Part shown: one piece after another, positions 23,046 through 63,398 of the stretch
Layout: every line of letters starts with the position of its first letter
Numbering within the stretch: position 1 is the stretch's first letter
From: Eledone cirrhosa
Taxonomy: Eukaryota
DNA: 64,000 nucleotides
Assembly: GCA_964016885.1 (NCBI GenBank)
Contig: OZ024743.1
Span: 16,802,001 to 16,866,000, forward strand
Reading direction: 5' to 3'
The notes under the pieces: generated by a model
Seen by the model: the letters and a program-made list of their open reading frames with translations, nothing else
The model's database searches: none
What the model was told of the DNA's origin: nothing
Position numbers and translations under genes: made by a program

Positions 23046-23102
23046 AATAATAATAATAATAATAATAATAATATTAATAATAATAATAATAATAATAATA
23101 AT
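23046..23102. repeat. (AAT)n tract, left boundary of the retrotransposon cluster
   Basis: Directly visible. Further tracts at 29090-29115, 30913-30989, 34628-34662, 34962-35017, 39532-39616, 44169-44201, 50223-50264 and 56303-56337. Confidence 0.98.
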
Positions 23103-23352
23103 GATTTCTTTATTAACCACAAGGGTTTACATAAAGTAGACATTAAGGACAGTGCAGGACAATGCAGGACGGTACAAATGGGCATTTCTGCGTGTAAAAA
23201 ACAAAAACAGAGGATGTAACAAAAAATAACAATGAAAAATTCCCCAATAGGGGGCAGACTTCGGAAGGACATTTGTGGAGAAAGCCCAGTAAAAAGCCAC
23301 AATGACCCTGACCACCAAGGCAAGTGCCCTCTCCCAGTTTTCCACCTTTAAT

Positions 23353-26300
23353 TTACAGATATAGAGTAGGCCCATTCACTCGGGCCATTCTTGCTTCTCT
23401 CACCCATCTTTCAACAAAATGGTGGGAAGAGAGCACTTCCCTCTCTACTCTGATTTTCCTTTTCAAATGAAATTTGAAAAAGTCAATCAGAGCATCAGCG
23501 AAGAGGTAAGTGCTCGTCTTCAGCCCTTTCAAACGTGTCCACCATACTATATCTTTCGCCATGGCCACCAGACAGATAAAAACTGCCTGCCCTTCCCGGC
23601 TAAAGGAGGAGGGCGGGGCAATCCTCACGATGGACTCAGATGATAGCCGGATCCGTCCTAAACGCGACAGCAGGTGTTCGAGATAAACCCACAAGTCAGC
23701 AGTTTTCGGACACTGGACGAGTTCGTGCAGGACGGTTTCGTCGCCCTGCGCGCATCTCGGACATGTCCGGCTGACGGTACCACAATGCCTGTAGAGTTTA
23801 TCCCGAACTGGCAAGGCTCCTCGGTAGCACTGCCAGGCCAGAGATTTCTGGAAGTTGTCCATAGGCCCTGGCCCGAAAGTTCTTCCGAAGAGATTGGCGT
23901 TGATTTTCGTCGACGCCTAGAGTTTCCCCAAGTACGACGTCGCTCTTCCCCTCCACTAATCCTCTATAGAACGCCGAGGTGGAGTTTCCACCGATCACAT
24001 TGCCCGATTGGTCGAGGGCTGTGAGCGCCTGAAGAAATTCCAGTCTCCAGGCGCTTCCACTCGGTCTTCGCTTGACCAAGGACTGCAGCTCCGTCAAGGA
24101 AACGAGCTGGGGAAATACGTGTCTAACAAACGGCGACCACACCTGATCACCGTCGAGGAAGAGGTGGAGATGTCGTAGCCTGAGCGCGTGCCTGCGCATC
24201 AACAGCCACGGCATGCCCAGCCCTCCACGTAGCGGGTGTTGACAACAGATGGACCGCCTGACCATCGGAGCGCGTCCCTTCCACAAAAAGCGAAAGAGAA
24301 AACGCTCCAGCGCAGTCAGGCGAGGCTTAGGACAAGGTACGACGGTCAGGCGGTAGCAGATGACAGACGCGATGTACGCGTTAGCCACCTCCGCTCGACC
24401 TTTCAGGGATAGCTTCCTCTTCGCCCATTTCTGGGTGAGAGAAGCCACCCTGCTCTTCACCTCGTCCCAATGTTTTGTCCGTCTGGAGGTCCGGACCGAA
24501 CCAGACCCCTAGCAATTTAACCGGTCCGACCGTGCAGCGTCCGACGACGCAGTTGGACTGCATGGATCTGACTCTCCAGGTGCCGAGCTGCAGGCCCACT
24601 GACTTTTCCTGGTTGATCATTGCTACTGTCACCGCTTCGTATTCTCTTAGTGTAGTTCCGATCGCCTCGATGTGTTTGGCGTTCGACACCGCAACGTTGA
24701 CATCATCCGCATATGCTGACACGGATCTTCCGCATCCTAGTTCGGGCAGGACACCCCTCAACGTCTCCAGTTTGTGCAGTAATGGCTCGAGAGTCAATAC
24801 GTACAAGAGGGAGGAGAGGGGACATCCTTGGAGGACCGAGCGCATGATGTCGAACGGTTCCGAAAGGTGACCGTTCACTCTCACCACAGAGCAGATGTCG
24901 CTGTGCCTGGCAGCGATCCAGCCTCTGAAGACGGGCCCAAAGCCAGCTGCCCTCAGGACTGCCGCTAGGTAACGATGGTCGATCCTATCGAAGGCTTTCG
25001 ACTGATCTAAATTGATCAAGGACTCACCCGTGCCAGGTTCCCTAGCTACCCTCTCTACGATGTATCGCATGGGGTGGAGGTTATCGTGGATGGATCTGTC
25101 GGGAATGGCGCATGTCTGCGCCTCTCCCACCAGACCACCAACGACAAGCGCCAAACTCTTTGCTAGCACCTTGGCCAACATCTTGAACTCCGTGTTTAGC
25201 AGAGTTATGGGCTGGAAATTATCTATGTTATCCCCCTTGTTCGGATCCTTTCTCAGCAGTGCCACCGCTCCTCGGCTCACAGAACTGGGAATTCTCCCGT
25301 GCTGTTGCCAGTTGCAGTAGACGTCCGCTAAGAGGCCTCCGAACAAGTCTGGCATCTGTACGTAAAGTTCATAGGGCAGACCATCCAAACCAGGCGATTT
25401 ACCCCTTGTACAGCCAGTCATTGCCTCCCTTACTTCAGCGGCTGTTATCAGCTTTTCGCAACACTTCGCCTCAGTGGCCGAGAGCCGCGGCAGTCCGTCG
25501 TGGTAGACATTAAAGTCCATCCCTCGACCCGGCCCACCGCTGCCCCCTAACAGCTGAGCGAAGTGTCGCTGAAAAGCTTCACACATTTGCCCGGGATCGA
25601 GTAGAATGCACCCTTCGTGGTCCACCAAAGACCGTATCGTGGCTTTGTTGCCACGACGCGCCTCCGCCACTCGGGCCCATTGAACGGCTTTCGTCCCCTC
25701 GTGTCTGAGAGCACGCACCCTAGCTCTGACTACGCAGCCTTCGTGCTTTGCATTGAAGAATTGGTCATGGGCCAATTTCGCCGCAAGCACGTCGGTCGCA
25801 ATGCCTTTGCTAAGCGCCTCGTCTAATTTTCTAACTAGTTCTCCCTCTGCTCTATTTTTCTCTATTGCTAAAGCCTTACTAAAGCTAATGTACTCTATTC
25901 TAATCGCTCTTTTCAGAGCAAATCACCACTTGTGGTTGACGATGGCCCCCGTCAATGCCCGCTTAACTAGTTCGCTAATCCGGTCTCTGTAGGCCTTACG
26001 CGCTGGTAAGGACGCGTTTAGCTTCCAGTAGCCGGGTCCTCGTCTATGAAGCCTATCTAAGTCAAGCACACAGATCACGAATTTGTGGTCCGTGTAGCTG
26101 ACTATCTTGAATTGTGGACAGCCTATGCTAGACCTATCTATTTCCCTACAAAATACTCTATCTAGCTATGATCTGGATGACCTTATGCGAATTGTCCAAG
26201 TCCACATTGGCACATTCGGAAAATCCAATCGGTACCTGTCAGACAGTTCAAAACGCCTGAGCAGGTTGGTGAGGCTTTTGCACCCCCCACCCTTCTCCGC

Positions 26301-26766
26301 TAATCCCCACAATCCCAGCGTGCATCTAAGGTCCAGTTCCAGTCGCCCACTAACACTAAAGAGCGGGACGTTCCAAGAAAGGTCTCCAGACGCCGGAAGA
26401 AATCAGGCCGCCCTGCCTTTGTCGAGGCATAGCTGGCCACTAGCCTGATAGCTTGCCCGTCTGCGCTGGTCACGTCCAGCACCACCACCTTACCCTCTGG
26501 GTCCAGGAAGATGGCCCGTATGGCGAGATCCAAACCTCTCCGAAAAAGCACAGTAACTCCCCCCCACCCGATCCAGGTCGGCTGGGAGATGCGTACACAT
26601 CGTAGCCGCCGATGATCGGTGCGAAGGCCCGTGCTTCGGAGATTCTGGTCTCGCTGATGGCCACTACATCTATGTTTAGTGACCTGAGGTCGTTGAGCAG
26701 GTGACCCTGCTTCCATGACGACCCCAAGCCACGCGCATTTATGCTGCCTATTCTGAGTGAGGTCAT
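23353..26766 (-). pseudogene. ORF2 (APE endonuclease-RT-zinc finger) of copy A, broken
   Basis: Fragments 26470-26766, 24381-25790 (QGCPLS, YADD), 23798-24460 and 23353-23862 match the intact ORF2 with frameshifts and stops. Confidence 0.92.
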
Positions 26767-26801
26767 GTTTAAAATAGAGTGGAAAAGATGGGAAAGACCA
26801 C

Positions 26802-28874
26802 TTACCGTACTTTTCGTAGAGGAGGGATGGTTTTTACATCCCTTTTCCCTTGATCGTCTGGTGAAGGGACCGTTGAATCGTCCCTTCGGCTGGTCGTCGG
26901 CTCTTCTATGAGTATGTCTGAATATACTCTTCGATTGATAGTTCCTCCTAGGTCCCTGAAATCACCAACTGCGTTGGGGAATTTCGTTTTAATGTTTGTG
27001 TATTGTTTCTGTGATATTTTTAGCAGTCTTATGTTAGTTGGCGTTTTGATTGGTGCTGGTATTATGTAGTCGTGTTGTGAAATGTCTGTGTGTTCAATTA
27101 TGTAAGTCATTAGTTTCTTGTTGTGTGTATTTATTGCCGTGCATTTGTTTTTCTGGGGGTGGGGTGTGGTTCTGCTATTTTCTTGTCGTTGTTGCTGGGT
27201 GTGTGTGTTTTGTTGTTGTGTTTGCGATGTTGGTGCTTGTGGTGGTGGTGTTGAAGGTGTTGTTGGCGGTGGGGTTGTCGCCGGTGGTGATGGTGGTGAT
27301 GGTGGTGCTGGTGTGGGTGGTGATGGTGTTGGTGGTGTTGCTGCTGTGAGTCTCTTTGCAGTAGACTTTACCCTTTTCTCATTTCTTTCCTCCCTTTTCA
27401 AAGGCGACGATGCGCTGCTTCTGCGTTTGTGCCTTCTTACGACCTTTTGCCATCTCTCTCCCACCTCACACTCCATGTCTGATTCTGTGAGGTCGGGGAG
27501 GGGTACCAGCTCCACTCTTTCACTTGTTGTTGTTGGTGATGTTTGCACTGGAGTCTCTGTTGCAGCTACATTTGGTATTGCTGTTGTTGTTGTTAATATT
27601 TCCACTGCTGCTGCTGTTTTTGATTTCCGTGGCGTGGGTATGGGTGCCACGGAGCTATCGTTCCTGGTTGCCGCTTGTCCTGTTGCTGGTAGCCGTGGAG
27701 CCGGTTTCGGAAGGAGGGGAGTTTTCTCCTTTCTCAGGATCTTCTCGTTGCAGATGGCCATGAGGTGAGTCTTCGATCCACAGCGAAAGCATTTCGGGAG
27801 TTTTCCCTCAACACTTATGGGCAGTTGAGTGCCGTTATCGACGTCTATCACACCCGGGAAAGATTCGATACACTCCTGGTTGGTTTGGATTAGCATCTCA
27901 ATGGAGGTGCCGACACAATCTTCTCTTACTTCTTTCTGTACTTGAAGTACAGTTGTTTTGTCCTTGATTCAGACGAGGACAGACGCGGCCAGCCAAGAAG
28001 GGGCCATCCCGGGGGGGACGTGGGTCAGTTTGACCCTCACAATTTTTTGCCCGCAGTATGAGGGCACCAACACCATTTCCTCGCTCCTTAGGCTCACTAC
28101 AGATTGAGCCTTTGCCTCCTGGGGTGTGGCAAAAAGTACGTCTACGGTGGCATATTTTTTGCCTCGGGTGATGTGCGTTTTCCGCTGCCACACAGACCCC
28201 AAGGCTTTTTGTATTTGAGCCTCTGTGGCTCTTTCAACCCTACGGGATTTTGTACTTACTGTACGGTACGTGACCGTACAGTGCTGTTGGGTTTCGAAAA
28301 CATTTTCCGGTGCCTTGCAGACTGCTTGGTGTCCAGTCTTTGTCACCATCTTCTTCGCTTCCTCTAATTCCTCATTTGTTATGAGGATTGTTTCCAGGTT
28401 CTTCGCAATACCTGCAAATGAGATTGGTTTTTCTTTGCTGCTGTTGTTGATATTGTCGTCAGAGCTGCTGTTACTTTTGTTGTTGCGGCTGCTGCTGTTG
28501 TTGTTGCTGCTAATACTGTTGTTGTTTATGCTGCTGCTGATGCTGTTGCGGCTGCTCCTGTTCTTTTCATTGTCACTGTTGCTGCTGTTATTACGGCTGC
28601 TACTGCTAATATTCCTGACGTCAGACGAGTGAAATGGGTTTTCGTATTTCCCGCACACCTTTTTCGTATTTGTCGTCGTCGTCGTGGAGAAATCTTGCTC
28701 GCTTTGCACGTGATTTTTCTTTTCTAGCGTCGCTTGCGAAATAGAAGGGAGGGAGAGAGACACATTTAGAGAAGGGAGGGAGAGAGACAATCTTCTCTCT
28801 GCTGTAGTGACGATTGAGGAAGTAGAAGACGGAATAAGTGGGAGTGACCTATGAAAATTATCTTCCGTAGCCAT
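26802..28874 (-). pseudogene. ORF1 (gag-like, CCHC knuckle) of copy A, premature stop at 27969
   Basis: MATEDNFH start, CFRCGSKTHLMAIC knuckle. TGA where copies B and C have GGA. Confidence 0.88.
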
Positions 28875-29115
28875 GTTGTTTTTTTGTTTAAAATATATAT
28901 TGGGCACAAAACCCCAATAGGCGGTTATTTAACCCCGAAGGGCCAAATAACGGGAAGAAAGACCCCACTCACGAGGAGGAGGGTGTTTTTGTTTACAAGT
29001 TCGTTAAAGTTTTAAACAATTTACAATTGTTATAGCGGTCAAAATGTACAATATTTTACAGAGCCGGACCTCCGTCAACCATAGCATTCAATAATAATAA
29101 TAATAATAATAATAA

Positions 29116-30912
29116 TTGACATGGTGCCTCATTCTTGGATCACCAAAAGCCTGGAGATCTTCAGGGTGGCAGATAACATCAGACAGTTGCTAGGCAGGAG
29201 TATGGGGTCCTGGGAGACAGAGTTGACATCAACTGGAGTATCCTTGGGAAGCGTGAAGATCAAGAGAGGTATCTTCCAGGGAGATAGCCTGTCCCCTCTG
29301 TTGTTTGTCCTTGCCCTGATGCCCTTGACCATTATGCTGCGAAATGTGAGAGCAGGATACAAGTTGGGAAAGGGAGAGCTTACCATCAATCACCTCCTCT
29401 TCATGGACGATCTTAAGCTCTTCGAGAAAAGTGAGAAGGAGTTGGATGTGCTTGTTGACACTGTCCGTATATTTAGCAGTGATATATGTATGCAGTTTGG
29501 TATTAGTAAATGTGGAGTCATTGTGATGAGGAGGGGTAGGTTGAGCAGAAGTAACGGTATCCAGATACCAACAGGTGAGATGATAAAGGAAATTGACTCT
29601 GAGGAAGGATACAAGTATTTGGGCGTTCTGGATGCTGATGGCATAAAGAACAAAAAAATGAAGGAATTGTTAAGAACTGAATACATTCGGAGAGTAAGGA
29701 GCGTATTGAAGTCACATCTGAACAGCAGAAATGCCATAAGCGCAGTAAATTCCCGAGCTGTGTCTATTATTAGGTACAGTGCGGGAATTCTGAGATGGAA
29801 TGTTGCTGAACAAAAAGAAATGGATAGGAAGACTAGGAAGCTATTGACTATCTACAACATGTTCCACAAGAGGAGTGATGTCGATAGACTCTACCTAAGG
29901 AGATCTGAGGGTGGAAGAGGTCTTATCAGCATAGAGGACTGTGTTCAGATGGAGAAAAACAACCTATACAAATACGTGACCTATAGTAAGGAGCCAATGC
30001 TCAGAACTGTACTGAAGGAGGGGACAGTAGGCCAGGGGATGTCCAATGAGGAAATAACATCAAGGAGGAAGAGCAGCCTTAAGGGAAAATCCCTTCATAG
30101 TACCTTCTTTGAGAAAACTGAATTTAGAGATCCACAGACATGGAACTGGTTCAGAAGAGGAGACCTCAAAAAGGCTACAGAAGGAATGCTAATGGCCGCG
30201 CAGGAGCAGGCCCTCAAAACGAAGTGGTTGAAGCACCATATTTACAAGGAGGAGGCTAGCCCACTGTGCAGGATCTGTGGAGAGAGAGAGGAGACTGTGG
30301 CTCACATTGTGTCCGAGTGTAAACACCTAGCCCAGACCCACTCTAAGGGCTGGAGACACGATGTGATGGGAGGGTGATCCACTGGCACCTGTGCAAAGTA
30401 AACAATTTACCACATTCTTAGAAATGGTATGAGCATAGGCCAGAGGCAGTGATGGAGAACAATCAGGTGAAGGTGCTGTGGGATTTTAGGATACAGACGG
30501 ACAAAAAACTGGAACACAATAGACCTGACCTGGTGGTTGTGGACAAAGAAAAAAGATCGTGTCTGATTGTGGATGTGGCCTGCCCTTTCGACACGAGAGT
30601 GCAAGAGAAGGAGAGGGAGAAAATTAACCGATACCAGGACCTAAAGTGGGAGGTGAAAAGGATTTGGAACTGCCATGAAGTCAAAGTGATCCCGATTGTC
30701 ATAGGCGCACTGGGGACTATCTCCAAAAGTTTCCAGGGATGGTTAAAGAAAATCGGCCCCTTCACGCTTTTTGGAACGCTTCAAAAGGCATGCTTGCTTG
30801 GAACAGCAAGAACCCTCCGATACGTCCTGAATATCTGAGGCTGCTGGTAGTGGCTTGATATTCATTCCAACGGACTTTCCAGTTAACCAACATCAATGAC
30901 TGAGATTCAAGG
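29116..30912 (+). mobile_element. R4/Dong-clade element family B, 5'-truncated copy
   Basis: [50 protein letters not shown] (restriction-like endonuclease). Frameshift near 30370. Starts inside RT directly after (AAT)n. Confidence 0.93.
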
Positions 30913-30924
30913 AATAACAACAAC

Positions 30925-30989
<65 letters not shown>

Positions 30990-30990
<1 letters not shown>

Positions 30991-33900
30991 CGGAATACTC
31001 CTACTGTTGGCCCTCCATGCTCTCCACCAAGAAATCCAAAGAAAAAGGGAGAAAAATGGTCAAGGGAAGATAATAAAGAAGTCCTTGAGGCTTTCTACAC
31101 TGCCATGTACTACCCATCAAATACATCGAATACAGAACAAACATATATCAACTGGAAAAAGAAACATCCCGAAAACAGAGGCTATATTGATAGTAACAAA
31201 CTAGCCAATATACGAAGAAATATTGTAAGAAAAAAGTTACTAACTGATATAGAAATTGATCACATCAAGCTAGTAGCACAAAGTCAGCGAAGGGAAAATG
31301 AAGCATGTGTCAGTGAAAACGAGGTAAACTGTAACACTTCGAATCCCAGGGTTGGGGCGGAATCACTGGCAACAGAACAAATTAAAGAAAGGAGCGAAAA
31401 AGTGGAGGGAGTGCATGCTCAGGATGAAACTCCAAATGAAAATAATGAGATCGTAAATGATAAAGAAATGAAAGAGAATGAACTTGCTAACTTGAAGGAT
31501 GAAATTATGATCGAATGGATGAAAATGAAAGAATCTGACATGGGGGAACGAGACACCCTCCCTAAGATTCAGAACTCCAAACAGAACCAAAAGATAATAC
31601 ACAAGACTAACCTAATTCTCAAAAACATTACCATCACAAACAAACTAAACATTACTGACTTAAATCATCTCTATTATGCATCGGCTAAAGTCACCACTCA
31701 CTTATGTGGAGTGAAGATGAAAAAACAAAGGAATTCCCACAAGAAATCTACTTGGCAAGATAACATCAATCGCCAAATAAACCTTCTCCGATCTGACATA
31801 GAAATTTTAACAAACTATAAAGTAGGTGAACATGTTAAACAAACTAAACTTAGAAAATTGAAAAAAAAGTACAGTATAAGATCAACATGTGACATAGACA
31901 TGCTGATAGAAACAATCATGCAAAAAGTGTCGGCCAAAGCTGCTCGTATAAGGCGCTTTGAAAAACGATCTAGATTCTATAAGGACAATAATATGTTCAA
32001 AAACAACCAAAGAAACTTCTACAGAAAAATTGGTAAGTCAACAATAACTGCTAAATCAATACCACCCAAGGAGGAAGTGCAAGAATTCTGGGAAAAGATC
32101 TGGGCCGAAGAAAAAGTTCATAACATACATGCCCCATGGATAGACAGACAAATGAAAGAAACAGCTCACCTTGAAGAACAAACATGGGAAATATTGAACA
32201 GCTGCGCTTGGCTCTAAGAAAAACCAGCAAATGGAAATCCCCAGGAAAAGACAAAATACAAAACTTTTGGATAAATGCCTTCACAGAGTCTCATGAGCTG
32301 TTAGCCCAACTTTACAATGAAATAGTTAAGGAGCCAGAAAAGATACCATCATGGCTAGTTAACGGCATTACATTCCTGCTACCGAAGAATGATGAGACAA
32401 ACAATCCCAAAAATTACAGACCGATAACCTGCTTGACCACAATGTATAAAATTTTAACATCAGTCCTAACTGAATACACATATGACCACCTGATAACAAA
32501 TGACCTATTTCCCATTGAGCAGAAAGGGTGTAAACGAGGCTCATATGGCTGTAAGGATCAGCTTCTGGTTAACAAAATGATACTGGAAGATTGTCATAAT
32601 AGACACAAAAATCTATCGATTGCTTGGATAGATTATAAAAAAGCATTTGATAGTTTGCCACACAGTTGGATTAAAAAATGTTTAGAGATTTTCAAAATAT
32701 CCCCCGTTGTCAGGAGGTTTTTGTCATTCAGTATGAGGACATGGAGAACGACACTCCTTTTGAATAGTGAAACAAAATCACTGGAAGCTGGAGAAGTTAA
32801 CATTAATTGTGGAATTTTTCAGGGTGACTCTTTATCACCGCTTTTATTCTGCATCGCACTTATAACATTAAGTAAAATGCTCAATGAAACAAAACATGGA
32901 TATAGAGTCTATGACAAAACCATTAATCACCTGTTCTGCATGGATGACCTGAAACTATTTGCAAAAAATGATGAACAATTGCAAGGGCTATTATCCACTG
33001 TGAAGCAGTTCAGTGATGACATTAAAATGGAGTTTGGACTGGATAAATGTGCCAAAGCAACGTTCACCAGAGGAAAGCTGCTGAAGAGTTCAGACATTAA
33101 TCTTGATCGGGGGAACGTGATAAGAGAGCTTGATCAAGAACAAACTTACAAATATCTAGGTGTTTGTGAAGGAGACGGAATCAAGCACTCGACAATGAGG
33201 GAAAGGATAAGGAAGGAATGTTACCGCAGAGTCAGAGCAATCTTAAGAACGGAATTGAATGCAAGGAATAGGATCGATGCCATAAACACGCTTGCCATAC
33301 CAGTAGTAACCTACAGTTACAATGTCATCAACTGGTCAAGCACAGAGATCCGTAGGCTCGATACAAAAATCCGAAAATTCTTAACCATGCACAGAATGCA
33401 TCACCCTAAGGCAGACATAGATAGAATATATCTCCCTAGGAAAGAAGGAGGACGTGGGTTAATCCAGTTAGACATTGCGTTGAAAACTGCAACAATTGGA
33501 TTATCCACATATCTAAGGGAATCACATGATTGGATGATCAAACTCGTTTTCAAACACGAAAGCACCAAAAGATCATATTCCATTACAAAAGATGCACAAA
33601 GATACAGTAATGGACTACAAATTTCAGAAGTCCCATTTACTGCTGAAATGGAAAACACAGAAAAAGCAAAGCAGGTAAAAGTAACTGCAAAGAAAGAACT
33701 GCTACAGAAACTGGCTAAGAAATGGCAAGAAAAGCCTCTGTATGGAAAATACCCAGAGCGAGCTAACAATCCTGATGTTGACAAAACTTTAACCCATCAG
33801 TGGTTGGCATCCTCTGGACTGAAATCGGAGACTGAAGGACTGATTATATCCGCACAAGATCAGTGTCTGCCAACAAAAAATTACCAAGCCAACATAATAA

Positions 33901-34627: not shown

Positions 34628-34660
<33 letters not shown>

Positions 34661-34663
<3 letters not shown>

Positions 34664-34960
34664 CTATAACAATACCAGTGGTTGTAGGCGCTCTGGGAAT
34701 GATACCTAAGGGGTCTAACGACTACTTATCGCAAATCCCAGGAAACCCGCGTATAGGAGAAATACAAAAGATAGTACTAATGGGAACTGCCCATATACTA
34801 AGGAAGATCCTGTCAATATAAATACATCACAAGTCTAAACACTAAGGATGCATGTGTGAATATGTATGTTCTTTCTTGAACATGGCGGACCTTGTTGTCT
34901 CTTGAGGTCACTGGTTGTGACTTGGTGATAACTCGTATAAACATAAAGCAAGATAAATGT
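34661..34960 (+). mobile_element. Family A 3'-terminal 300-bp copy
   Basis: Near-identical to 34328-34626, flanked by (AAT)n. Confidence 0.93.
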
Positions 34961-34961
34961 A

Positions 34962-35017
<56 letters not shown>

Positions 35018-39531: not shown

Positions 39532-39546
39532 AATAACAACAACAAC

Positions 39547-39616
<70 letters not shown>

Positions 39617-44451: not shown

Positions 44452-47400
44452 TTACAGATATATACTCAGTGTAGGCCCATTCACTCGGGCCATTCTTGCT
44501 TCTCTCACCCATCTTTCAACAAAATGCTGGGAAGAGAGCACTTCCCTCTCTACTCTGATTTTCCTTTTCAAATGAAATTTGAAAAAGTCAATCAGAGCAT
44601 CACCGAAGAGGTAAGTGCTCGTCTTCAGTCCTTTCAAACGTGTCCACCATACTATCTCTTTCACCATGGCCACCAGGCAGATAAAAACTGCCTGCCCTTC
44701 CCGGCTAAAGGAGGGGGGCGGGGCAATCCTCACGATGGACTCAGATGATAGCCGGATCCGTCCTAAACGCGACAGCAGGTGTTCGACATAAACCCACAAG
44801 TCAGCAATTTTCGGACACTGGACGAGTGCGTGCAGGACGGTTTCGTCGCCCTGCGCGCATCTCGGACATGCCCGGCTGACGGCACCTCCATGCCTGCAGA
44901 GTTTATCCCGAACTGGCAAGGCTCCTCGGTAGCACTGCCAGGCCAGAGATTTCTGGAAGTTGTCCATAGGCCCTGGCCCGAAAGTTCTTCCGAAGAGATT
45001 GGCTAGTTGATATTCGTCGACGCCTAGAGTTTCCCCAAGTACGTCGTCGCTCTTCCCCTCCACTAATCCTATATAGAACGCCGAGGTGGAGTTTCCACCG
45101 ATCACATTGCCCGATTGTTCGAGGGCTGTGAGCGCCTGAAGACATTCCAGTCTCCAGGCGCTCCCTCTCGGTCTTCGCTTGACCCAGGACTGCAGCTCCT
45201 TCAAGGAAACGAGCTGGGGAAAAACGCGTCTAGCAAACGGCGACCACACCTGATCACCGTCGAGGAAGAGGTGGAGATGTCGTAGCCTGAGCGCGTGCCT
45301 GCGCATCATCAGCCACGGCATGCCCAGCCCTCCACGTAGCGGGTGTTGACAACAGATGGACCGCCTGACCATCGGAGCACGTCCCTTCCACAAAAAGCGA
45401 AAGAGCAAACGCTCCAGCGCAGTCAGGCGAGGCTTAGGACAAGGTACGACGGTCAGGCGGTAGCAGATGACAGACGCGATGTACGCGTTAGCCACCTTCG
45501 CTCGACCTTTCAGGGATAGATTCCTCTCCGCCCATTTCTGGGTGAGAGAAGCCACCCTGCTCGTCACCTTGTCCCAGTTTTTGTCCGTCTGGAGGTCCGG
45601 ACCGAACCAGACCCCTAGCAATTTAACCGGTCCGTCCGTCCAGCGCCCGACGACGATGTTGGACGGCATTGACCTGCCTCTCCAGGTGCCGAGCTGCAGG
45701 CCCACTGACTTTTCCTGGTTGATCATTGCTCCTGTCACCGCTTCGTATTCTCTTAGTGTAGAGCCGATCGCCTCGATGTGTTTGGCGTTCGACACCACTA
45801 CGGTGACATCGTCCGCATATGCTGACACGGATCTTCCGCATCCTAGTTCGCGCGGGACTCCCCTCAACGTCTCCAGTTTGTGCAGTAATGGCTCGAGAGT
45901 CAATACGTACAAGAGGGACGAGAGGGGACATCCTTGGCGGACCGAGCGCATGAAGTTGAACGGTTCCGACAGGTGACCGTTCACTCTCACCACAGAGCAG
46001 ATGTCGCTGTGCATGGCAGCGATCCAGCCTCTGAAGACGGGCCCAAAGCCAGCCGCCCTCAGGACTGCCGCTAGGTAACGATGGTCGACCCTATCGAAAG
46101 CTTTCGACTGATCTAAATTGATCGAGGACCCACCCGTGCCAGGTTCCCTAGCTACCCTCTCTACGATGTATCGCATGAGGTGGAGGTTGTCGTGGATGGA
46201 TCTGTCGGGAATGGCGCATGTCTGCGCCTCTCCCACCAGACCACCAACGACAAGCGCCAACCTCTTTGCTAGCACCTTGGCCAAAATCTTAAACTCTGTG
46301 TTTAGCAGAGTTATGGGCCGGAAATTGTCTATGTTATCCCCCTTGTTCGGATCCTTTCTCAGCAGTGCCACCGCTCCTCGGCTCACAGAACTGGGAATTC
46401 TCCCATTCTGTTGCCAGTTGCAGTAGACGTCCGCCAAGAGGCCTCCGAACAAGTCTGGCATCTGTACGTAAAGTTCATAGGGCAGACCATCCAAACCAGG
46501 CGATTCACCCCTTGTGCAGCCAGTCATTGCCTCCCTTACTTCAGCGGCTGTTATCGGCTTTTCGCAACACTTCGCCTCAGTGGCCGAGAGCCGCGGCAGT
46601 CCGTCGAGGTAGACACTAAAGTCCATCCCTCTACCCGGCCCACCGCTGCCCCCGAACAGCTGAGCGAAGTGTCGCTGAAAAGCTTCACACATTTGCCCGG
46701 GATCGAGTAGCATGCGCCCGTCGTGGTCCACCAAAGACCGGATCGTGGCTTTGTTGCCACGACGCGCCTCCGCCACTCGGGCCCATTGAACGGCTTTCGT
46801 CCCCTCGTGTCTGAGAGCACGCACCCTTGCTCTGACAACGCAGCCTTCGTGCTTTGCATTGAAAAATTGGTCATGGGCCAATTTCGCCGCAAGCACGTCG
46901 GTCGCAATGCCTTTGCTAAGCGCCTCGTCTAATTTTCTAACTAGTTCTCCCTCTGCTCTATTTTTCTCTATTGCTAAAGCCTTACTAAACCTAATCGATT
47001 CTATTCTAATCGCTCTTTTCAGAGCAAACCACCACTTGTTGTTGACGATGGCCCCCGTCAACGCCCGCTTAACTAGTTCGCTAATCCGGTCTCTGTAGGC
47101 CTTGCGCGCTGGTAAGGACGCGTTTAGCTTCCAGTAGCCGGATCCTCGTCTATGAAGCCTATCTAAGTCAAGCACACAGATCACGAATTTGTGGTCCGTG
47201 TAGCTGACTATCTTGAATTGTGGACAGCCTATGCTAGACCTATCTATTTCCCTACAAAATACTCTATCTAGATATGATCTGGATGACCCTATGCGGTTTG
47301 TCCAAGTCCACATTGGCACATTAGGGAAATCCAATCGGTACCTGTCAGACAGTTCAAAACGCCTGAGCAGGTTGGTGAGGCTCTTGCACCCTCCACCCCT

Positions 47401-47871
47401 ATCCGCTAATCCCACACAGTCCCAGCGTGCATCTAAGATCCCGTTCCAGTCGCCCACTAACACTAAAGAGCGGGACGTTCCAAGAAAGGTCTCCAGACGC
47501 CGGAAGAAATCAGGCCGCCCTGCTCCTGTCGGGGCATAGACGGCGACTAGCCTGCAAGCTTGCCCGTCTCCGCTGGTCACGTCCTGCACCACCAGCTTAC
47601 CCTCTGGGTCCAAGAAGATGGCCCGTATGGCGAGATCCAAACCTCTCCGAAAAAGCACAGCAACTCCTCCACCGGATCCAGGACGGCTGGGAGATGCGTA
47701 CACATCGTAGCCGCCGAAGATCGGTGCGAAGGCCCGTGCTTCGGAGATTCTGGTCTCGCTGATGGCCACTACATCTATGTTTAGTGACCTGAGGTCGTTG
47801 AGCAGGTGACCCTGCTTCCATGACAACCCCAAGCCACGCGCATTTATGCTGCCTATTCTGAGTGAGGTCAT
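44452..47871 (-). CDS. Intact ORF2: APE endonuclease, reverse transcriptase and C-terminal zinc finger (1139 aa)
   Basis: SINARGL, AISETR, LVGDWN, SYLDRVF, TDHK (APE). NFRPITLLN, LDQSKAFDRV, VRQGCPLS, YADD (RT). CPRC..ETVLHALVQC. Confidence 0.95.
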   Translation of the reverse strand: MTSLRIGSINARGLGLSWKQGHLLNDLRSLNIDVVAISETRISEARAFAPIFGGYDVYASPSRPGSGGGVAVLFRRGLDLAIRAIFLDPEGKLVVQDVTSGDGQACRLVAVYAPTGAGRPDFFRRLETFLGTSRSLVLVGDWNGILDARWDCVGLADRGGGCKSLTNLLRRFELSDRYRLDFPNVPMWTWTNRIGSSRSYLDRVFCREIDRSSIGCPQFKIVSYTDHKFVICVLDLDRLHRRGSGYWKLNASLPARKAYRDRISELVKRALTGAIVNNKWWFALKRAIRIESIRFSKALAIEKNRAEGELVRKLDEALSKGIATDVLAAKLAHDQFFNAKHEGCVVRARVRALRHEGTKAVQWARVAEARRGNKATIRSLVDHDGRMLLDPGQMCEAFQRHFAQLFGGSGGPGRGMDFSVYLDGLPRLSATEAKCCEKPITAAEVREAMTGCTRGESPGLDGLPYELYVQMPDLFGGLLADVYCNWQQNGRIPSSVSRGAVALLRKDPNKGDNIDNFRPITLLNTEFKILAKVLAKRLALVVGGLVGEAQTCAIPDRSIHDNLHLMRYIVERVAREPGTGGSSINLDQSKAFDRVDHRYLAAVLRAAGFGPVFRGWIAAMHSDICSVVRVNGHLSEPFNFMRSVRQGCPLSSLLYVLTLEPLLHKLETLRGVPRELGCGRSVSAYADDVTVVVSNAKHIEAIGSTLREYEAVTGAMINQEKSVGLQLGTWRGRSMPSNIVVGRWTDGPVKLLGVWFGPDLQTDKNWDKVTSRVASLTQKWAERNLSLKGRAKVANAYIASVICYRLTVVPCPKPRLTALERLLFRFLWKGRAPMVRRSICCQHPLRGGLGMPWLMMRRHALRLRHLHLFLDGDQVWSPFARRVFPQLVSLKELQSWVKRRPRGSAWRLECLQALTALEQSGNVIGGNSTSAFYIGLVEGKSDDVLGETLGVDEYQLANLFGRTFGPGPMDNFQKSLAWQCYRGALPVRDKLCRHGGAVSRACPRCAQGDETVLHALVQCPKIADLWVYVEHLLSRLGRIRLSSESIVRIAPPPSFSREGQAVFICLVAMVKEIVWWTRLKGLKTSTYLFGDALIDFFKFHLKRKIRVEREVLSSQHFVERWVREARMARVNGPTLSIYL

Positions 47872-47906
47872 GTTTAAAATAGAGTGGAAAAGATGGGAAA
47901 GACCAC

Positions 47907-50008
47907 TTACCGTACTTTTGGTAGAGGAGGGATGGTTTTTACATCCCTTTTCACTTGATCGTCTGGTGAAGGGACCGTTGAATCGTACCTTCGGCTGGTC
48001 GTCGGTTCTTCTAAGAGAATGTCTGAGTATACTCTTCGATTGATGGTTCCTCCTAGGTCCCTGAAATCACCAACTGCGTTGGGGAATTTCGTTTTAATAT
48101 TTGTGTATTGTTTCTGTGCTATTTTTAGCAGTCTTATGTTAGTTGGCGTTTTGATTGGTGCTGGTATTATGTAGTCCTGTTGTGAAATGTCTGTGTGTTC
48201 AATTATGTAAGTCATTAGTTTCTTGTTGTGTGTATTTATTGCCGTGCATTTGTTTTTCTGGGGGTGGGGTGTGGTTCTGCTATTTTCTTGTCGTTGTTGC
48301 TGGGTGTGTGTGTTTTGTTGTTGTGTTTGCGATGTTGGTGCTTGTGGTGGTGGTGTTGAAGGTGTTGTTGGCGGTGGGGTTGTCGCCGGTGGTGATGGTG
48401 GCGCTAGTGTGGGTGGTGATGGTGTTGGTGTTGTTGCTGCTGTGGGTCTCTTTGCAGTAGACTTTACCCTTTTCTCATTTCTTTCCTCCCTTTTCAAAGG
48501 CGACGATGCGCTGCTTCTGCGTTTGTGCCTTCTTACGACCTTTTGCCATCTCTCTCCCACCTCACACTCCATGTCTGATTCTGTGAGGTCGGGGAGGGGT
48601 ACCAGCTCCACTCTTTCACTTGTTGTTGTTGATGATGTTTGCACTGGAGTCTCTGTTGCAGCTGCATTTGGTATTGCTGTTGTTGTTGTTAGTATTTCCA
48701 CTGCTGCTGCTGTTTTTGATTTCCGTGGAGTGGGTATGGGTGCCACGGGCCTATCGTTCCTGGTTGCCGCTTGTCCTGTTGCTGGTAGCCGTGGAGCCGG
48801 ATTCGGAAGGAGGGGGGTTTTCTCCTTTCTCAGGGTCTTCTCGTTGCAGAAGGCCCTGAGGTGAGTCTTCGATCCACAGCGAAAGCATTTCGGGCGTTTG
48901 CCCTCAACACTTATGGGCAGTTGAGTGCCGTTATCGAAGTCTATCACATCCGGGATAGCTTCGATGCACTCCTGGTTGGTTTGGATTAGCATCTCAATGG
49001 AGGAGCCGACCCAATCTTCTCTTACTTTTTTCTGTACTTGCAGTACAGTTGTTTTGTCCTCGATTCCGACGAGGACAGACGCGGCCAGCCAAGAAGCGGT
49101 CATTCCGGGGGGGGGGGGACGTGGGTCAGTTTGACCCTCACAATTTTTTGCCCACAGTAGGAGGGCACCAACACCATTTCCTCGCTCCTTAGGGTCACTA
49201 CTGATTGGGCCTTTGGCTCCTGGGGTGTGGCAAAAAGTACGTCTACGGTGGCATATTTTTTGCCTCGGGTGATGTGCGTTTTCCGCTGCCACACAGACCC
49301 CAAGGCTTTTTGTATTTGGGCCTCTGTGGCTCTTTCCACCCTACGGGATTTTGTACTTACTGTACGGTACGTGACCGTACAGTGCTCTTGGGTTTCGAAA
49401 AATTTTTCCGCTGTCTTGCAGATTGCTCGGTGTCCGTTCTGTGTCACCATCTTCTTCGCTTCCTCTAATTCCTCATTTGTTATGAGGATTGTTTCCAAGT
49501 TTTTCGCAATACCTGCAAATGAGATTGGTTTTTCTCTGGTGTTGTTGTTGTCGTCAGAGCTGCTGGTACTTTTGTTGTTGCTGCAGGTACTACGACTACT
49601 GCCTCCGCCGCTGTTGCTGTGGTTGTTGTTGGTGTTGCTGCTGCTAATGCTGTTGTTGTTTATGCTGCTGGTGATGCTGTTGCGGCTGCTACTGTTGTTT
49701 TCATTGTCACTGTTGCTGTTGTTATTACGGCTGCTACTGCTATTATTCCTGACGTCAGACGAATGAACTGGGTTTTCGTATTTCCCGCACACCTGTTTCG
49801 TCGCTGTCGTCGTCGTCGTGGAGAAACCTTGCACGCTTTGCACGAGACTTTTCTTTTCTTTCGTCACTTGCGAAAGAGAAGGGAGGGAGAGAGACACATT
49901 TAAAGAAGGGAGGGAGAGAGACAATCTTCTCTCTGCTGTAGTGATGATTGAGGAAGAAGAAGACGGAATGAGTGGGAGTGACGTATGAAATTTCTTTTTC
50001 GTAGCCAT
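47907..50008 (-). CDS. ORF1 (gag-like nucleic-acid-binding protein), apparent frameshift in a C12 run
   Basis: ORFs 49100-50008 and 47907-49292 join at the homopolymer 49107-49118. CFRCGSKTHLRAFC knuckle, Ser/Asn-rich and Pro/Thr-rich low-complexity segments. Confidence 0.85.
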
Positions 50009-50222
50009 GTTGTTTTTTGTTTAAAATGAATATTGGGTACAAAACCCCAATAACTGGTTATTTAACCCCGAAGGGCCAAATAACGGACAGAAAGACCCCT
50101 CTCACGAGGAGGAGGGTGTCTTTATCAACAATTTGGTTCAAGTTTTAAACAATTTACAATTGTTTTAACGGTTAAAAATTACTATACCTTACAGAGCCGA
50201 GCCTCCGTCAACCATGGCATTC

Positions 50223-50266
<44 letters not shown>

Positions 50267-50525
50267 TTTCTTTATTAACCACAAGGGTTTACATAAAGTA
50301 GACATTAAGGACAGTGCAGGACAATGCAGGACGGTACAAATGGGCATTTCTGCGTATAAAAAACAAAAACAGAGGATGTAACAAAAATAACAATGAAAAT
50401 AACAATGAAAAATTCCCCAATAGTGGGGAGACTTCGGAGGGACATTTGTGGTGAAAGCCCAGTAAAAAGCCACAATGACCCTGACCACCAAGGCAAGTGC
50501 CCTCTCCCAGTTTTCCACCTTTAAT

Positions 50526-53500
50526 TTACAGATATATACACAGAGTAGGCCCATTCACTCGGGCCATTCTTGCTTCTCTCACCCATCTTTCAACAAAATG
50601 CTGGGAAGAGAGCACTTCCCTCTCTACTCTGATTTTCCTTTTCAAATGAAATTTGAAAAAGTCAATCAGAGCATCACCGAAGAGGTAAGTGCTCGTCTTC
50701 AGCCCTTTCAAACGTGTCCACCATACTATCTCTTTCACCATGGCCACCAGGCAGATAAAAACTGCCTGCCCTTCCCGGCTAAAGGAGGAGGGCGGGGCAA
50801 TCCTCACGATGGACTCAGATGATAGCCGGATCCGTCCTAAACGCGACAGCAGGTGTTCGACATAAACCCACAAGTCAGCAATTTTCGGACACTGGACGAG
50901 TGCGTGCAGGACGGTTTCGTCGCCCTGCGCGCATCTCGGACATGCCCGGCTGACGGCACCTCCATGCCTGTAGAGTTTATCCGGAACTGGCAAGGCTCCT
51001 CGGTAGCACTGCCAGGCCAGAGATTTCTGGAAGTTGTCCATAGGCCCTGGCCCGAAAGTTCTTCCGAAGAGATTGGCTAGTTGATTTTCGTCGACGCCTA
51101 GAGTTTCCCCAAGTACGTCGTCGCTCTTCCCCTCCACTAATCCTCTATAGAACGCCGAGGTGGAGTTTCCACCGATCACATTGCCCGATTGGTCGAGGGC
51201 TGTGAGCGCCTGAAGACATTCCAGTCTCCAGGCGCTCCCTCTCGGTCTTCGCTTGACCCAGGACTGCAGCTCCGTCAAGGAAACGAGCTGGGGAAAAACG
51301 CGTCTAGCAAACGGCGACCACACCTGATCACCGTCGAGGAAGAGGTAGAGATGTCGTAGCCTGAGCGCGTGCCTGCGCATCATCAGCCACGGCATGCCCA
51401 GCCCTCCACGTAGCGGGTGTTGACAACAGATGGACCGCCTGACCATCGAAGCACGTCCCTTCCACAAAAAGCGAAAGAGCAAACGCTCCAGCGCAGTCAG
51501 GCGAGGCTTAGGACAAGGTACGACGGTTAGGCGGTAGCAGATGACAGACGCGATGTACGCGTTAGCCACCTCCGCTCGACCTTTCAGGGATAGCTTCCTC
51601 TCCGCCCATTTCTGGGTGAGAGAAGCCACCCTGCTCGTCACCTCGTCCCAGTTTTTGTCCGTCTGGAGGTCCGGACCGAACCAGACCCCTAGCAGTTTAA
51701 CCGGTCCGTCCGTCCAGCGCCCGACGACGCTGTTGGACGGCATGGACCTGCCTCTCCAGGTGCCGAGCTGCAGGCCCACTGACTTTTCCTGGTTGATCAT
51801 TGCTCCTGTCACCGCTTCGTATTCTCTTAGTGTAGTGCCGATCGCCTCGATGTGTTTGGCGTTCGACACCACTACGGTGACATCGTCCGCATATGCTGAC
51901 ACGGATCTTCCGCATCCTAGTTCGCGCGGGACTCCCCTCAACGTCTCCAGTTTGTGCAGTAATGGCTCGAGCGTCAATACGTACAAGAGGGACGAGAGGG
52001 GACATCCTTGGCGGACCGAGCGCATGATGTTGAACGGTTCCGACAGGTGACCGTTCACTCTCACCACAGAGCAGATGTCGCTGTGCATGGCAGCGATCCA
52101 GCCTCTGAAGACGGGCCCAAAGCCAGCCGCCCTCAGGACTGCCGCTAGGTAACGATGGTCGACCCTATCGAAAGCTTTCGACTGATCTAAATTGATCAAG
52201 GACCCACCCGTGCCAGGTTCCCTAGCTACCCTCTCTACGATGTATCGCATGAGGTGGAGGTTGTCGTGGATGGATCTGTCGGGAATGGCGCATGTCTGCG
52301 CCTCTCCCACCAGACCACCAACGACAAGCGCCAACCTCTTTGCTAGCACCTTGGCCAAAATCTTAAACTCTGTGTTTAGCAGAGTTATGGGCCGGAAATT
52401 GTCTATGTTATCCCCCTTGTTCGGATCCTTTCTCAGCAGTGCCACCGCTCCTCGGCTCACAGAACTGGGAATTCTCCCGTTGTGTTGCCAGTTGCAGTAG
52501 ACGTCCGCCAAGAGGCCTCCGAACAAGTCTGGCATCTGTACGTAAAGTTCATAGGGCAGACAATCCAAACCAGGCGATTTACCCCTTGTGCAGCCAGTCA
52601 TTGCCTCCCTTACTTCAGCGGCTGTTATCGGCTTTTCGCAACACTTCGCCTCAGTGGCCGAGAGCCGCGGCAGTCCGTCGAGGTAGACACTAAAGTCCAT
52701 CCCTCTACCCGGCCCCCCGCTGCCCCCGAACAGCTGAGCGAAGTGTCGCTGAAAAGCTTCACACATTTGCCCGGGATCGAGTAGCATGCGCCCGTCGTGG
52801 TCCACCAAAGACCGGATCGTGGCTTTGTTGCCACGACGCGCCTCCGCCACTCGGGCCCATTGAACGGCTTTCGTCCCCTCGTGTCTGAGAGCACGCACCC
52901 TAGCTCTGACAACGCAGCCTTCGTGCTTTGCATTGAAGAATTGGTCAAGGGCCAATTTCGCCGCAAGCACGTCGGTCGCAATGCCTTTGCTAAGCGCCTC
53001 GTCTAATTTTCTAACTAGTTCTCCCTCTGCTCTATTTTTCTCTATTGCTAAAGCCTTACTAAACCTAATCGATTCTATTCTAATCGCTCTTTTCAGAGCA
53101 AACCACCACTTGTTGTTGACGATGGCCCCCGTCAACGCCCGCTTAACTAGTTCGCTAATCCGGTCTCTGTAGGCCTTGCGCGCTGGTAAGGACGCGTTTA
53201 GCTTCCAGTAGCCGGGTCCTCGTCTATGAAGCCTATCTAGGTCAAGCACACAGATCACGAATTTGTGGTCCGTGTAGCTGACTATCTTGAATTGTGGACA
53301 GCCTATGCTAGACCTATCTATTTCCCTACAAAATACTCTATCTAGATATGATCTGGATGACCCTATGCGGTTTGTCCAAGTCTACATTGGCACATTCGGG
53401 AAATCCAATCGGTACCTGTCAGACAGTTCAAAACGCCTGAGCAGGTTGGTGAGGCTCTTGCACCCTCCACCCCTATCCGCTAATCCCACACAGTCCCAGC

Positions 53501-53945
53501 GTGCATCTAAGATCCCGTTCCAGTCGCCCACTAACACTAAAGAGCGGGACGTTCCAAGAAAGGTCTCCAGACGCCGGAAGAAATCAGGCCGCCCTGCTCC
53601 TGTCGGGGCATAGACGGCCACTAGCCTGAAAACTTGCCCGTCTCCGCTGGTCACGTCCAGCACCACCAGCTTACCCTCTGGGTCCAGGAAGATGGCCCGT
53701 ATGGCGAGATCCAAACCTCTCCGAAAAAGCACAGCAACTCCTCCACCCGATCCAGGACGGCTGGGAGATGCGTACACATCGTAGCCGCCGAAGATCGGTA
53801 CGAAGGCCCGTGCTTCGGAGATTCTGGTCTCGCTGATGGCCACTACATCTATGTTTAGTGACCTGAGGTCGTTGAGCAGGTGACCCTGCTTCCATGACGA
53901 CCCCAAGCCACGCGCATTTATGCTGCCTATTCTGAGTGAGGTCAT
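50526..53945 (-). pseudogene. ORF2 of copy C with one premature stop (TGG>TAG at 53382-53384)
   Basis: ORFs 53382-53945 and 50526-53258 are in frame and match copy B. Confidence 0.92.
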
Positions 53946-53980
53946 GTTTAAAATAGAGTGGAAAAGATGGGAAAGACCAC

Positions 53981-56088
53981 TTACCGTACTTTTGGTAGAG
54001 GAGGGATGGTTTTTACATCCCTTTTCACTTGATCGTCTGGTGAAGGGACCGTTGAATCGTCCCTTCGGCTGGTCGTCGGCTCTTCTAAGAGAATGTCTGA
54101 GTATACTCTTCGATTGATGGTTCCTCCTAGGTCCCTGAAATCACCAACTGCGTTGGGGAATTTCGTTTTAATGTTTGTGTATTGTTTCTGTGCTATTTTT
54201 AGCAGTCTTATGTTAGTTGGCGTTTTGATTGGTGCTGGTATTATGTAGTCCTGTTGTGAAATGTCTGTGTGTTCAATTATGTAAGTCATTAGTTTCTTGT
54301 TGTGTGTATTTATTGCCGTGCATTTGTTTTTCTGGGGGTGGGGTGTGGTTCTGCTATTTTTCTTGTCGTTGTTGCTGGGTGTGTGTGTTTTGTTGTTGTG
54401 TTTGCGATGTTGGTGCTTGTGGTGGTGGTGTTGAAGGTGTTGTTGGCGGTGGGGTTGTCGCCGGTGGTGATGGTGGCGCTAGTGTGTGTGGTGATGGTGT
54501 TGGTGTTGTTGCTGCTGTGGGTCTCTTTGCAGTAGACTTTACCCTTTTCTCATTTCTTTCCTCCCTTTTCAAAGGCGACGATGCGCTGCTTCTGCGTTTG
54601 TGCCTTCTTACGACCTTTTGCCATCTCTCTCCCACCTCACACTCCATGTCTGATTCTGTGAGGTCGGGGAGGGGTACCAGCTCCACTCTTTCACTTGTTG
54701 TTGTTGATGATGTTTGCACTGGAGTCTCTATTGCAGCTGCATTTGGTATTGCTGTTGTTGTTGTTAGTATTTCCACTGCTGCTGCTGTTTTTGATTTCCG
54801 TGGAGTGGGTATGGGTGCCACGGGCCTATCGTTCCTGGTTGCCGCTTGTCCTGTTGCTGGTAGCCGTGGAGCCGGATTCGGAAGGAGGGGGGTTTTCTCC
54901 TTTCTCAGGGTCTTCTCGTTGCAGAAGGCCCTGAGGTGAGTCTTCGATCCACAGCGAAAGCATTTCGGGCGTTTGCCCTCAACACTTATGGGCAGTTGAG
55001 TGCCGTTATCGAAGTCTATCACATCCGGGATAGCTTCGATGCACTCCTGGTTGGTTTGGATTAGCATCTCAATGGAGGAGCCGACCCAATCTTCTCTTAC
55101 TTTTTTCTGTACTTGCAGTACAGTTGTTTTGTCCTCGATTCCGACGAGGACAGACGCGGCCAGCCAAGAAGGGGTCATTCCGGGGGGGGGGGGGGGGGAC
55201 GTGGGTCAGTTTGACCCTCACAATTTTTTGCCCACAGTAGGAGGGCACCAACACCATTTCCTCGCTCCTTAGGGTCACTACTGATTGGGCCTTTGGCTCC
55301 TGGGGTGTGGCAAAAAGTACGTCTACGGTGGCATATTTTTTGCCTCGGGTGATGTGCGTTTTCCGCTGCCACACAGACCCCAAGGCTTTTTGTATTTGGG
55401 CCTCTGTGGCTCTTTCCACCCTACGGGATTTTGTACTTACTGTACGGTACGTGACCGTACAGTGCTCTTGGGTTTCGAAAAATTTTTCCGCTGTCTTGCA
55501 GATTGCTCGGTGTCCGTTCTGTGTCACCATCTTCTTCGCTTCCTCTAATTCCTCATTTGTTATGAGGATTGTTTCCAAGTTTTTCGCAATACCTGCAAAT
55601 GAGATTGTTTTTTCTCTGCTGTTGTTGTTGTCGTCAGAGCTGCTGGTACTTTTGTTGTTGCTGCAGGTACTACGACTACTGCCTCCGCCGCTGTTGCTGT
55701 GGTTGTTGTTGGTGTTGCTGCTGCTAATGCTGTTGTTGTTTATGCTGCTGGTGATGCTGTTGCGGCTGCTACTGTTGTTTTCATTGTCACTGTTGCTGTT
55801 GTTATTACGGCTGCTACTGCTATTATTCCTGACGTCAGACGAATGAACTGGGTTTTCGTATTTCCCGCACACCTGTTTCGTCGCTGTCGTCGTCGTCGTG
55901 GAGAAACCTTGCACGCTTTGCACGAGACTTTTCTTTTCTTTCGTCACTTGCGAAAGAGAAGGGAGGGAGAGAGACACATTTAAAGAAGGGAGGGAGAGAG
56001 ACAATCTTCTCTCTGCTGTAGTGATGATTGAGGAAGAAGAAGACGGAATGAGTGGGAGTGACGTATGAAATTTCTTTTTCGTAGCCAT
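53981..56088 (-). pseudogene. ORF1 of copy C with two homopolymer frameshifts
   Basis: C17 run at 55182-55198 and an extra A at about 54356-54361 split the ORF. Confidence 0.85.
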
Positions 56089-56302
56089 GTTGTTTTTTGT
56101 TTAAAATGAATATTGGGTACAAAACCCCAATAACTGGTTATTTAACCCCGAAGGGCCAAATAACGGACAGAAAGACCCCTCTCACGAGGAGGAGGGTGTC
56201 TTTATCAACAATTTGGTTCAAGTTTTAAACAATTTACAATTGTTTTAACGGTTAAAAATTACTATACCTTACAGAGCCGAGCCTCCGTCAACCATGGCAT
56301 TC

Positions 56303-56365
<63 letters not shown>

Positions 56366-63378: not shown

Positions 63379-63398
63379 TATTATTATTATTATTATAG

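Follow-up and report, generated by a model that had tools for sequence, protein, structure and literature searches.

Opposite-Facing Trains of Dong-Like and Tx1-Like LINEs in Interstitial AAT Repeats of Eledone cirrhosa, With Probable Exchange Between Neighbouring Copies

A 64,000-nucleotide stretch of the Eledone cirrhosa genome (GCA_964016885.1, contig OZ024743.1, positions 16,802,001 to 16,866,000; hereafter the window, whose coordinates are used throughout) contains an array of eight retrotransposons without long terminal repeats (non-LTR), separated only by AAT repeats. The array is probably explained by insertion of Dong-like and Tx1-like long interspersed nuclear elements (LINEs) into (AAT)n in opposite directions, with a likely gain of AAT, and by subsequent gene conversion, also likely, between neighbouring copies. 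Its position is 16.8 Mb into a contig of 379 Mb, and its repeat is an interstitial AAT repeat rather than a telomeric one.

Coordinates of the eight units, which extend from 23102 to 56302, bore out the place, order and strands given in a preliminary description of this DNA. U1 (23102–29089, minus strand) is a full-length Tx1-like element in which both open reading frames (ORFs) are broken; at 94.5% identity to U7 and U8, it is the older copy. It is followed on the plus strand by U2 (29117–30912), a 5'-truncated DongB element matching positions 2755–4552 of U6, and by U3 (30990–34627), a DongA element with reverse transcriptase (RT), CCHC knuckle, PD..D..K nuclease motif and a split ORF. The truncation of U2 had been recognized, whereas U3, which had been taken as untruncated, is 1,293 bp shorter at its 5' end than full-length DongA. 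U4 (34663–34961, plus strand) is a 299-bp DongA 3' stub from the same 862-copy subfamily as U3. Two full-length DongB elements, U5 (35018–39531) and U6 (39617–44168), complete the plus-strand units. U7 (44202–50222) and U8 (50265–56302) are full-length Tx1-like elements on the minus strand. ORFs of U8 are broken, while U7 has a split ORF1 and an open ORF2 (44452–48066; 1,204 amino acids from stop to stop) encoding apurinic/apyrimidinic endonuclease (APE), RT and zinc-finger domains. None of the eight units retains an intact coding set.

The seven inner tracts, starting at 29090, 30913, 34628, 34962, 39532, 44169 and 50223, consist of 27, 77, 35, 56, 85, 33 and 42 bp, respectively, of AAT/AAC repeat, in which the AAC units follow DongB. 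The claim that only AAT repeat, and no host DNA, separates the units (26–85 bp) was thus confirmed, with measured gaps of 27–85 bp, and unit coordinates showed that no unit is inserted in another. On the left, the array is bounded by a 57-bp (AAT)n tract with one interruption (23045–23101) and on the right by (AAT)11 followed by (AAG)14 (56303–56378, both plus strand). Placement of the array inside a single (AAT)n microsatellite needs correction at the right end, which passes into (AAG)14. Both adjoining flanks are single-copy in the 3.0-Gb genome, and the window contains no N bases. Compound (AAT)n(AAG)n targets are frequent (L002, L008, L028, L134 and window 56336–56378), and the start of one truncated DongB copy, next to the AAG portion of its tract, is an AGA-rich run internal to the element.

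Minus-strand units have the ORF1 plus ORF2 layout, Pfam domains Exo_endo_phos, RVT_1 and zf-RVT, and catalytic motifs. The best solved structure for their ORF2 was L1 ORF2 (PDB, E = 3e-50) and the best named relative was a coral protein labelled TX1 149 kDa (E = 5e-84); an Octopus sinensis protein gave a 64% match to a short piece of ORF2. In the plus-strand units, RT is followed by a CCHC knuckle and a PD..D..K restriction-like endonuclease (RLE), motifs found in both DongA and DongB. RVT_1 was present and Exo_endo_phos absent, and the best solved relatives were R2 proteins, with the nuclease aligned. DongA and DongB proteins are 40% identical, and their bodies show no DNA match. The N-terminus of the Dong-like protein gave a confident predicted four-helix model (residues 47–112) with no fold match at E ≤ 0.001, and a CCHH pattern was absent from the first 300 amino acids of 19 of 19 relatives. 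For the R4/Dong clade, a diverged N-terminal Myb/SANT domain without zinc fingers is described in the sections of the literature dealing with this region (PMC7998251). Protein searches returned no named Dong or R4 reference among the relatives; the names Dong (R4 clade) and Tx1 are putative assignments based on architecture and insertion target.

Use of the AAT target was analysed in 1.66 Mb of sequence, comprising a random megabase (ten random 100-kb blocks from the four largest contigs), 264 kb around the window and 400 kb at Tx1 clusters, the latter a biased pick. All 97 tract-adjacent ends of Dong-like (RLE) elements faced with the AAT strand, and 75 of 76 tract-adjacent ends of Tx1-like (APE) elements faced against it, the sole exception being an AAT tract that abuts an ATT tract. 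AAT tracts were present at 30/30 Tx1a 5' ends, 28/30 full-length Dong 5' ends, 29/30 DongB 3' ends and 22/30 Tx1 3' motifs. These 30-locus sets are not independent, as the Tx1a set, in which U7 is included, was selected for its identity to U8, the other sets are the first 30 loci on contig C1, and some loci belong to one train. Another LINE was located within 150 bp at 21/30 Tx1a 5' ends, 14/30 Tx1 3' motifs, 21/30 DongB 3' ends and 21/30 Dong 5' ends. Genome-wide, 21,684 Tx1 3' motifs (control, 98), 8,294 DongB 3' motifs and 1,160 full-length Dong 5' motifs were found, together with at least 1,027 exact DongB-AAT-Tx1 tail-to-tail joints. Among forward Tx1 3' motifs, 6,736 of 10,963 continued into (ATT)3; sampled others ended in TA or CTAT repeats. 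The 5' joint of Tx1b kept a single phase in all 10 cases, and that of Tx1a was exact in 7 of 11. Since 5' AAT tracts also occur at many truncated Dong copies, AAT is a target and not merely a tail. These results agree with the earlier proposals that an APE-type and an RLE-type lineage share one (AAT)n target and that insertions stack with target left on both sides; 5' AAT flanks, whose absence from most copies had been named as a possible refutation, were present at 30/30 and 28/30 of the sampled Tx1a and Dong 5' ends.

A short element resembling a short interspersed nuclear element (SINE) and ending in ATT (B1 96170–96282; 79 hits in the random megabase) also occurs in some trains; 11 of its 13 tract-adjacent ends have the polarity of Tx1. 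Older relatives of Tx1, with ~70% likeness (L036, L040, L045, L052), terminate in TA or CTAT repeats or in none, so that the lineage may have changed its targets.

Target-primed reverse transcription is established for the R4/Dong and Tx1 clades and would also be the route of insertion for the elements studied here. The Dong RLE and Tx1 APE nucleases likely nick opposite strands of (AAT)n, which would account for the fixed opposite directions of the two lineages. The fixed junction phase suggests that the first Tx1 nick falls between successive units of the AAT strand (AAT/AAT), and Dong would prime from the other strand. Each insertion would leave, and likely add, AAT that attracts the next one. 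Adjacent copies of the same family would then be partly overwritten by gene conversion or template switching, for which the AAT tract may provide the return homology.

The nine AAT tracts of the array total 399 bp. Division of one tract by eight insertions would not yield this total, which makes a gain of AAT likely. In the 1.66-Mb sample, tracts between two elements had a median length of 36 bp (n = 63), as compared to 12 bp for element-free tracts (n = 60; P = 1e-14), the latter being counted from 12 bp upward and reaching at most 66 bp. From these lengths, a net gain of AAT per insertion is likely, and its possible sources are copying of a 3' tail, a staggered cut and subsequent slippage. 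DongB tails with AAC interruptions were seen repeatedly, at many loci, indicating that part of the tail is copied along with DongB. A comparison of tract length by junction type, made to show which side adds AAT, gave no difference (P 0.31 and 0.78). Sites in the random megabase, tallied by hand, held 2, 7, 1, 1, 1 and 9 elements, with 10–11 or 40–41 empty tracts depending on the threshold. This occupancy rejected independent hits (P ~1e-5 or less), and a geometric self-amplifying model was marginal for tracts of at least 15 bp (P 0.03–0.04).

Copies in the same train were on average no closer than other copies (P 0.19, 0.92, 0.23 and 0.92 in four tests with 17–33 copies), indicating that most units are separate insertions. 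The preliminary description of all eight as independent insertions was nevertheless not supported, as the pairs U5/U6 and U7/U8 each carry common alleles that are unique in the genome. U5 and U6 differ by ~6% in their first 914 bp, then at no position in the next 1,673 bp and at 3 sites up to position 4369; the common tract (35894–39313 in U5, 40531–43950 in U6, plus strand) thus contains 3 differences in ~3.4 kb. At 17 candidate sites, U5 and U6 share 15 alleles not found in any other sampled copy (12–45 other copies per site). A frameshift common to both (near 37597 in U5), which splits the ORF of U6, was missing from 14 of 15 other copies, the fifteenth being a diverged variant. A 24-mer across this frameshift and a 21-mer across two U5/U6 single-nucleotide polymorphisms (SNPs) each occurred twice in the 3-Gb genome, in U5 and U6. 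Likewise, U7 and U8 differ at 5 sites, all substitutions, over their 5' 2.1 kb (48101–50222 and 54175–56302, minus strand) versus 1.4% over the remaining 3.9 kb, and the two genomic occurrences of a 35-mer across two of their SNPs were in U7 and U8. As a control, a 25-mer of the subfamily common to U3 and U4 marked 862 copies. An unlinked DongA copy was nearer to U3 than U4, and duplication of U4 from U3 is neither supported nor excluded. The 5' end of U6 fits a young subfamily and that of U5 does not, which makes U6 the likely donor.

Among eight adjacent same-family pairs with a 900-bp overlap, identical runs of at least 400 bp were found in three and of at least 800 bp in two; among 1,193 far pairs, partly double-counted, the corresponding numbers were 19 and 1. 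A third pair (T5), in addition to U5/U6 and U7/U8, contains an internal identical run of 1,006 bp. Exchange between neighbours thus recurs, yet is not the rule.

Several results weigh against the proposed sequence of AAT-targeted insertion, AAT gain and neighbour conversion. No ATT tail followed 8 of the 30 Tx1 3' motifs. An empty allele was not found, the flanks being single-copy and no relative's contig having been seen to cover them, which leaves the AAT gain to be deduced from tract lengths. When tracts of at least 12 bp were included, the self-amplifying model was rejected (P ~1e-4), so that another bias is needed; insertion probably favours longer tracts or trains already present. For the idea of a self-extending array, the likely AAT gain (399 bp in all, versus a median of 12 bp and a maximum of 66 bp for element-free tracts) counts in favour. 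Five of the eight adjacent same-family pairs had no identical run of 400 bp, and one far pair had a run of 1,027 bp. No read spanned any unit in the runs searched, which contained no long reads and for which repeats were skipped in mapping. In three restriction-site-associated DNA (RAD) samples, the DongB-Tx1 joint was represented by 1,357–1,586 molecules versus 453–633 in the reverse direction, a signal merely 2–3 times this background, and chimeras were common. Its fragments made up ~1% of first mates, as opposed to 11% (3 of 27 loci) expected in silico without size bias. A seven-fold difference was observed between a short and a 319-bp RAD fragment from one site, and fragment-size bias may explain the shortfall.

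There is a small but appreciable chance that the train is real and that the sharing between neighbours arose in assembly, where a repeat was collapsed or haplotypes were switched and the sequence of one copy was written into the neighbouring unit. The lack of spanning reads would fit this account, as would the position of the common parts, which lie on the right-hand side in both pairs, and the residual divergence of 0.1–0.25%, which resembles that of alleles. However, U5 and U6 each retain three private changes inside the common tract. The ~0.5% of private alleles in this tract would correspond to the load of one young copy, with no obvious blend of two copies. A contig from run X1, possibly the source sample, matched 2.35 kb of the left flank with zero differences, and a similarly identical adjacent pair (B8) was kept apart in the assembly.

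That trains were only seeded by insertion and owe most of their growth to tandem duplication or unequal crossover appears very improbable. Arrays of R1 and MoTeR expand in this way according to the parts of two reports that concern such arrays (PMC5932611; 10.1101/845669), and the long tracts common to U5/U6, U7/U8 and the T5 pair would be expected from it. It is contradicted by the mixture of families, truncation points and ages within trains, by the overall lack of closeness of same-train pairs, and by the partial nature of the common tracts, whose flanking 5' or 3' parts and lengths differ. Even less credible are eight independent insertions in which U5/U6 and U7/U8 each derived from one rare source element. 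The 862-copy subfamily does explain the likeness of U3 and U4 in this manner, but the alleles confined to U5/U6 and U7/U8 in 3 Gb, which leave no source or sister copy in the assembly, largely refute it for these pairs; the inclusion of a frameshift in the U5/U6 allele set and the 6% divergence of U5 and U6 over the first 900 bp also speak against it. A variant, a single event involving an RNA-to-RNA template jump, is admissible. Finally, an erroneous joining of the entire train through AAT tracts, or a role of AAT as a 3' tail and not a target, is hardly tenable: although the tracts are repeat junctions that no long read spans, the sequence has no gaps, the flanks are single-copy, 5' ends including truncated ones carry tracts, and, as indirect evidence, 11,256 molecules of RAD run X17 (another sample) terminate 58 bp within the Dong 5' end, their first mates lying upstream, a pattern suggestive of DongB-to-Dong joints.

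The array is typical of the genome, in which such trains are common. Two trains, one of ~25 kb with 7 elements and one of ~33 kb with 9, occurred in the random megabase, and this, together with the genome-wide number of DongB-AAT-Tx1 joints, ran counter to a view of the locus as unique. Hits of at least 85% identity to the Dong and Tx1 families covered 66,830 bases (6.7%) of the random megabase, a count that used four library copies from the same blocks and to which two blocks contributed most bases. Seventeen of 28 tracts of at least 15 bp touched a Dong or Tx1 end. The array is preceded by a further cluster at a distance of 33 kb and followed by another at 5 kb. Insertion had been called non-destructive, which applies within the array, where nesting is absent; nested insertions at other loci (L125, L127 and L132, and also L101) show that this property is not absolute.

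A second cluster, facing the opposite way (Tx1 on plus, DongA and a DongB variant on minus, and more), occupies window 61687–64000 and continues to ~93830 (L061–L063), with some internal gaps unmapped. At 60716–60825, the window also contains a near-perfect 110-nt inverted repeat, whose score in a microRNA model was under threshold.

The 5' ends of the elements showed additional features. DongA and DongB (39617 in the window) have 5' untranslated region (UTR) types in common (76–86%), each of the two pairings being observed; Tx1a and Tx1b have ORF2 in common (94%) and differ in 5' UTR and ORF1. These patterns suggest 5'-end swapping. A splice-donor-like motif, noted by eye, lies 44–46 nt from the 5' end in both unrelated lineages (39617–39760; Tx1b, Tx1c, DongA), with a GGGC..GCCC hairpin, also noted by eye, ~100 nt beyond it. 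A hepatitis delta virus (HDV)-like reading of the CTCCTCGT hairpin in the Tx1a 5' UTR was rejected, as Rfam gave no ribozyme. For a 5' HDV-like ribozyme in general, Rfam returned no match and an HDV descriptor gave 0 hits at 6 of 6 5' ends. In run X4 (organism B), depths over window 20000–39900 were 1e4–1e5 or more for Tx1 and DongA and at most 158 for DongB at 95% likeness; DongB accordingly seems younger or lineage-specific.

Dong elements of the R4 clade combine RT with a restriction-like nuclease and a (TAA)n target, and are documented for insects, molluscs and cnidarians in the relevant parts of two papers (PMC7998251; PMC3812793). The Dong units of the array resemble Bombyx Dong, DongAg, DongBg and Darwinula Dong in these three properties. 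They differ from known Dong in that two families 40% alike share their target with an APE element in dispersed multi-kilobase trains, and from Bombyx Dong in that no 5' HDV-like ribozyme, such as that described for the latter in a section of PMC3774820, was detected in them. In Octopus vulgaris, Dong-R4 contributes more bases than any other recently active LINE group, and L1-Tx1 was also recently active, as stated in the part of PMC13282606 on these groups. Like the microsatellite-specific Tx1 families Kibi, Koshi and those of crocodilians, the Tx1-like units have an ORF1, an APE-RT-zinc finger ORF2 and precise insertion in a simple repeat; unlike the targets named for those families in the pertinent passages (TC, TTC, TTCC and TTTC; PMC4494074), their target is (ATT)n. 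Neither an ATT-specific Tx1 nor mixed AAT trains of Dong and Tx1 were found described in the open literature, Repbase and subscription papers being outside the scope.

SART and TRAS belong to the R1 clade and are both APE-type. In Bombyx, SART1 and TRAS1 insert into (TTAGG)n in opposite directions (PMC7265360, in its account of the two elements). The presence of two LINE kinds in one repeat, in opposite directions, was observed here too; unlike the telomeric, exclusively APE-type pair, the present elements occupy interstitial, dispersed AAT repeats and represent two nuclease classes. Tandems of R1 and other elements (PMC5932611) and MoTeR arrays (10.1101/845669) form by double insertion followed by unequal exchange, as outlined in the portions of those reports on array formation. 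There, as here, site preference builds tandems that recombine, whereas the trains described here mix families at very many interstitial sites and show partial-tract exchange instead of clean copy-number expansion. What appears new is the combination, its scale and the exchange between neighbours, each ingredient having a precedent in Dong, in SART/TRAS or in R1 and MoTeR arrays.

It is conceivable, though rather doubtful at present, that thousands of dispersed AAT trains constitute a self-renewing compartment of several percent of the genome, in which two nuclease classes make each other's targets and neighbours recombine. If so, this compartment would spread dead alleles locally and shuffle 5' ends between families, and its trains would parallel the element arrays of ribosomal DNA or telomeres, in interstitial positions and with several families, and have a concerted evolution of their own. 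A sizeable share of a large cephalopod-type genome (6.7% in the random megabase) would then follow from one targeting rule. If neighbours convert one another, the dating and counting of copies would be biased, and families would have a route for exchanging 5' ends. Most long perfect AAT tracts in this genome are element junctions, which is relevant to microsatellite markers. The trains offer a natural system for testing target renewal by site-specific LINEs, and would be a source of an APE specific for (ATT)n and an RLE specific for (AAT)n, acting on opposite strands of one repeat.

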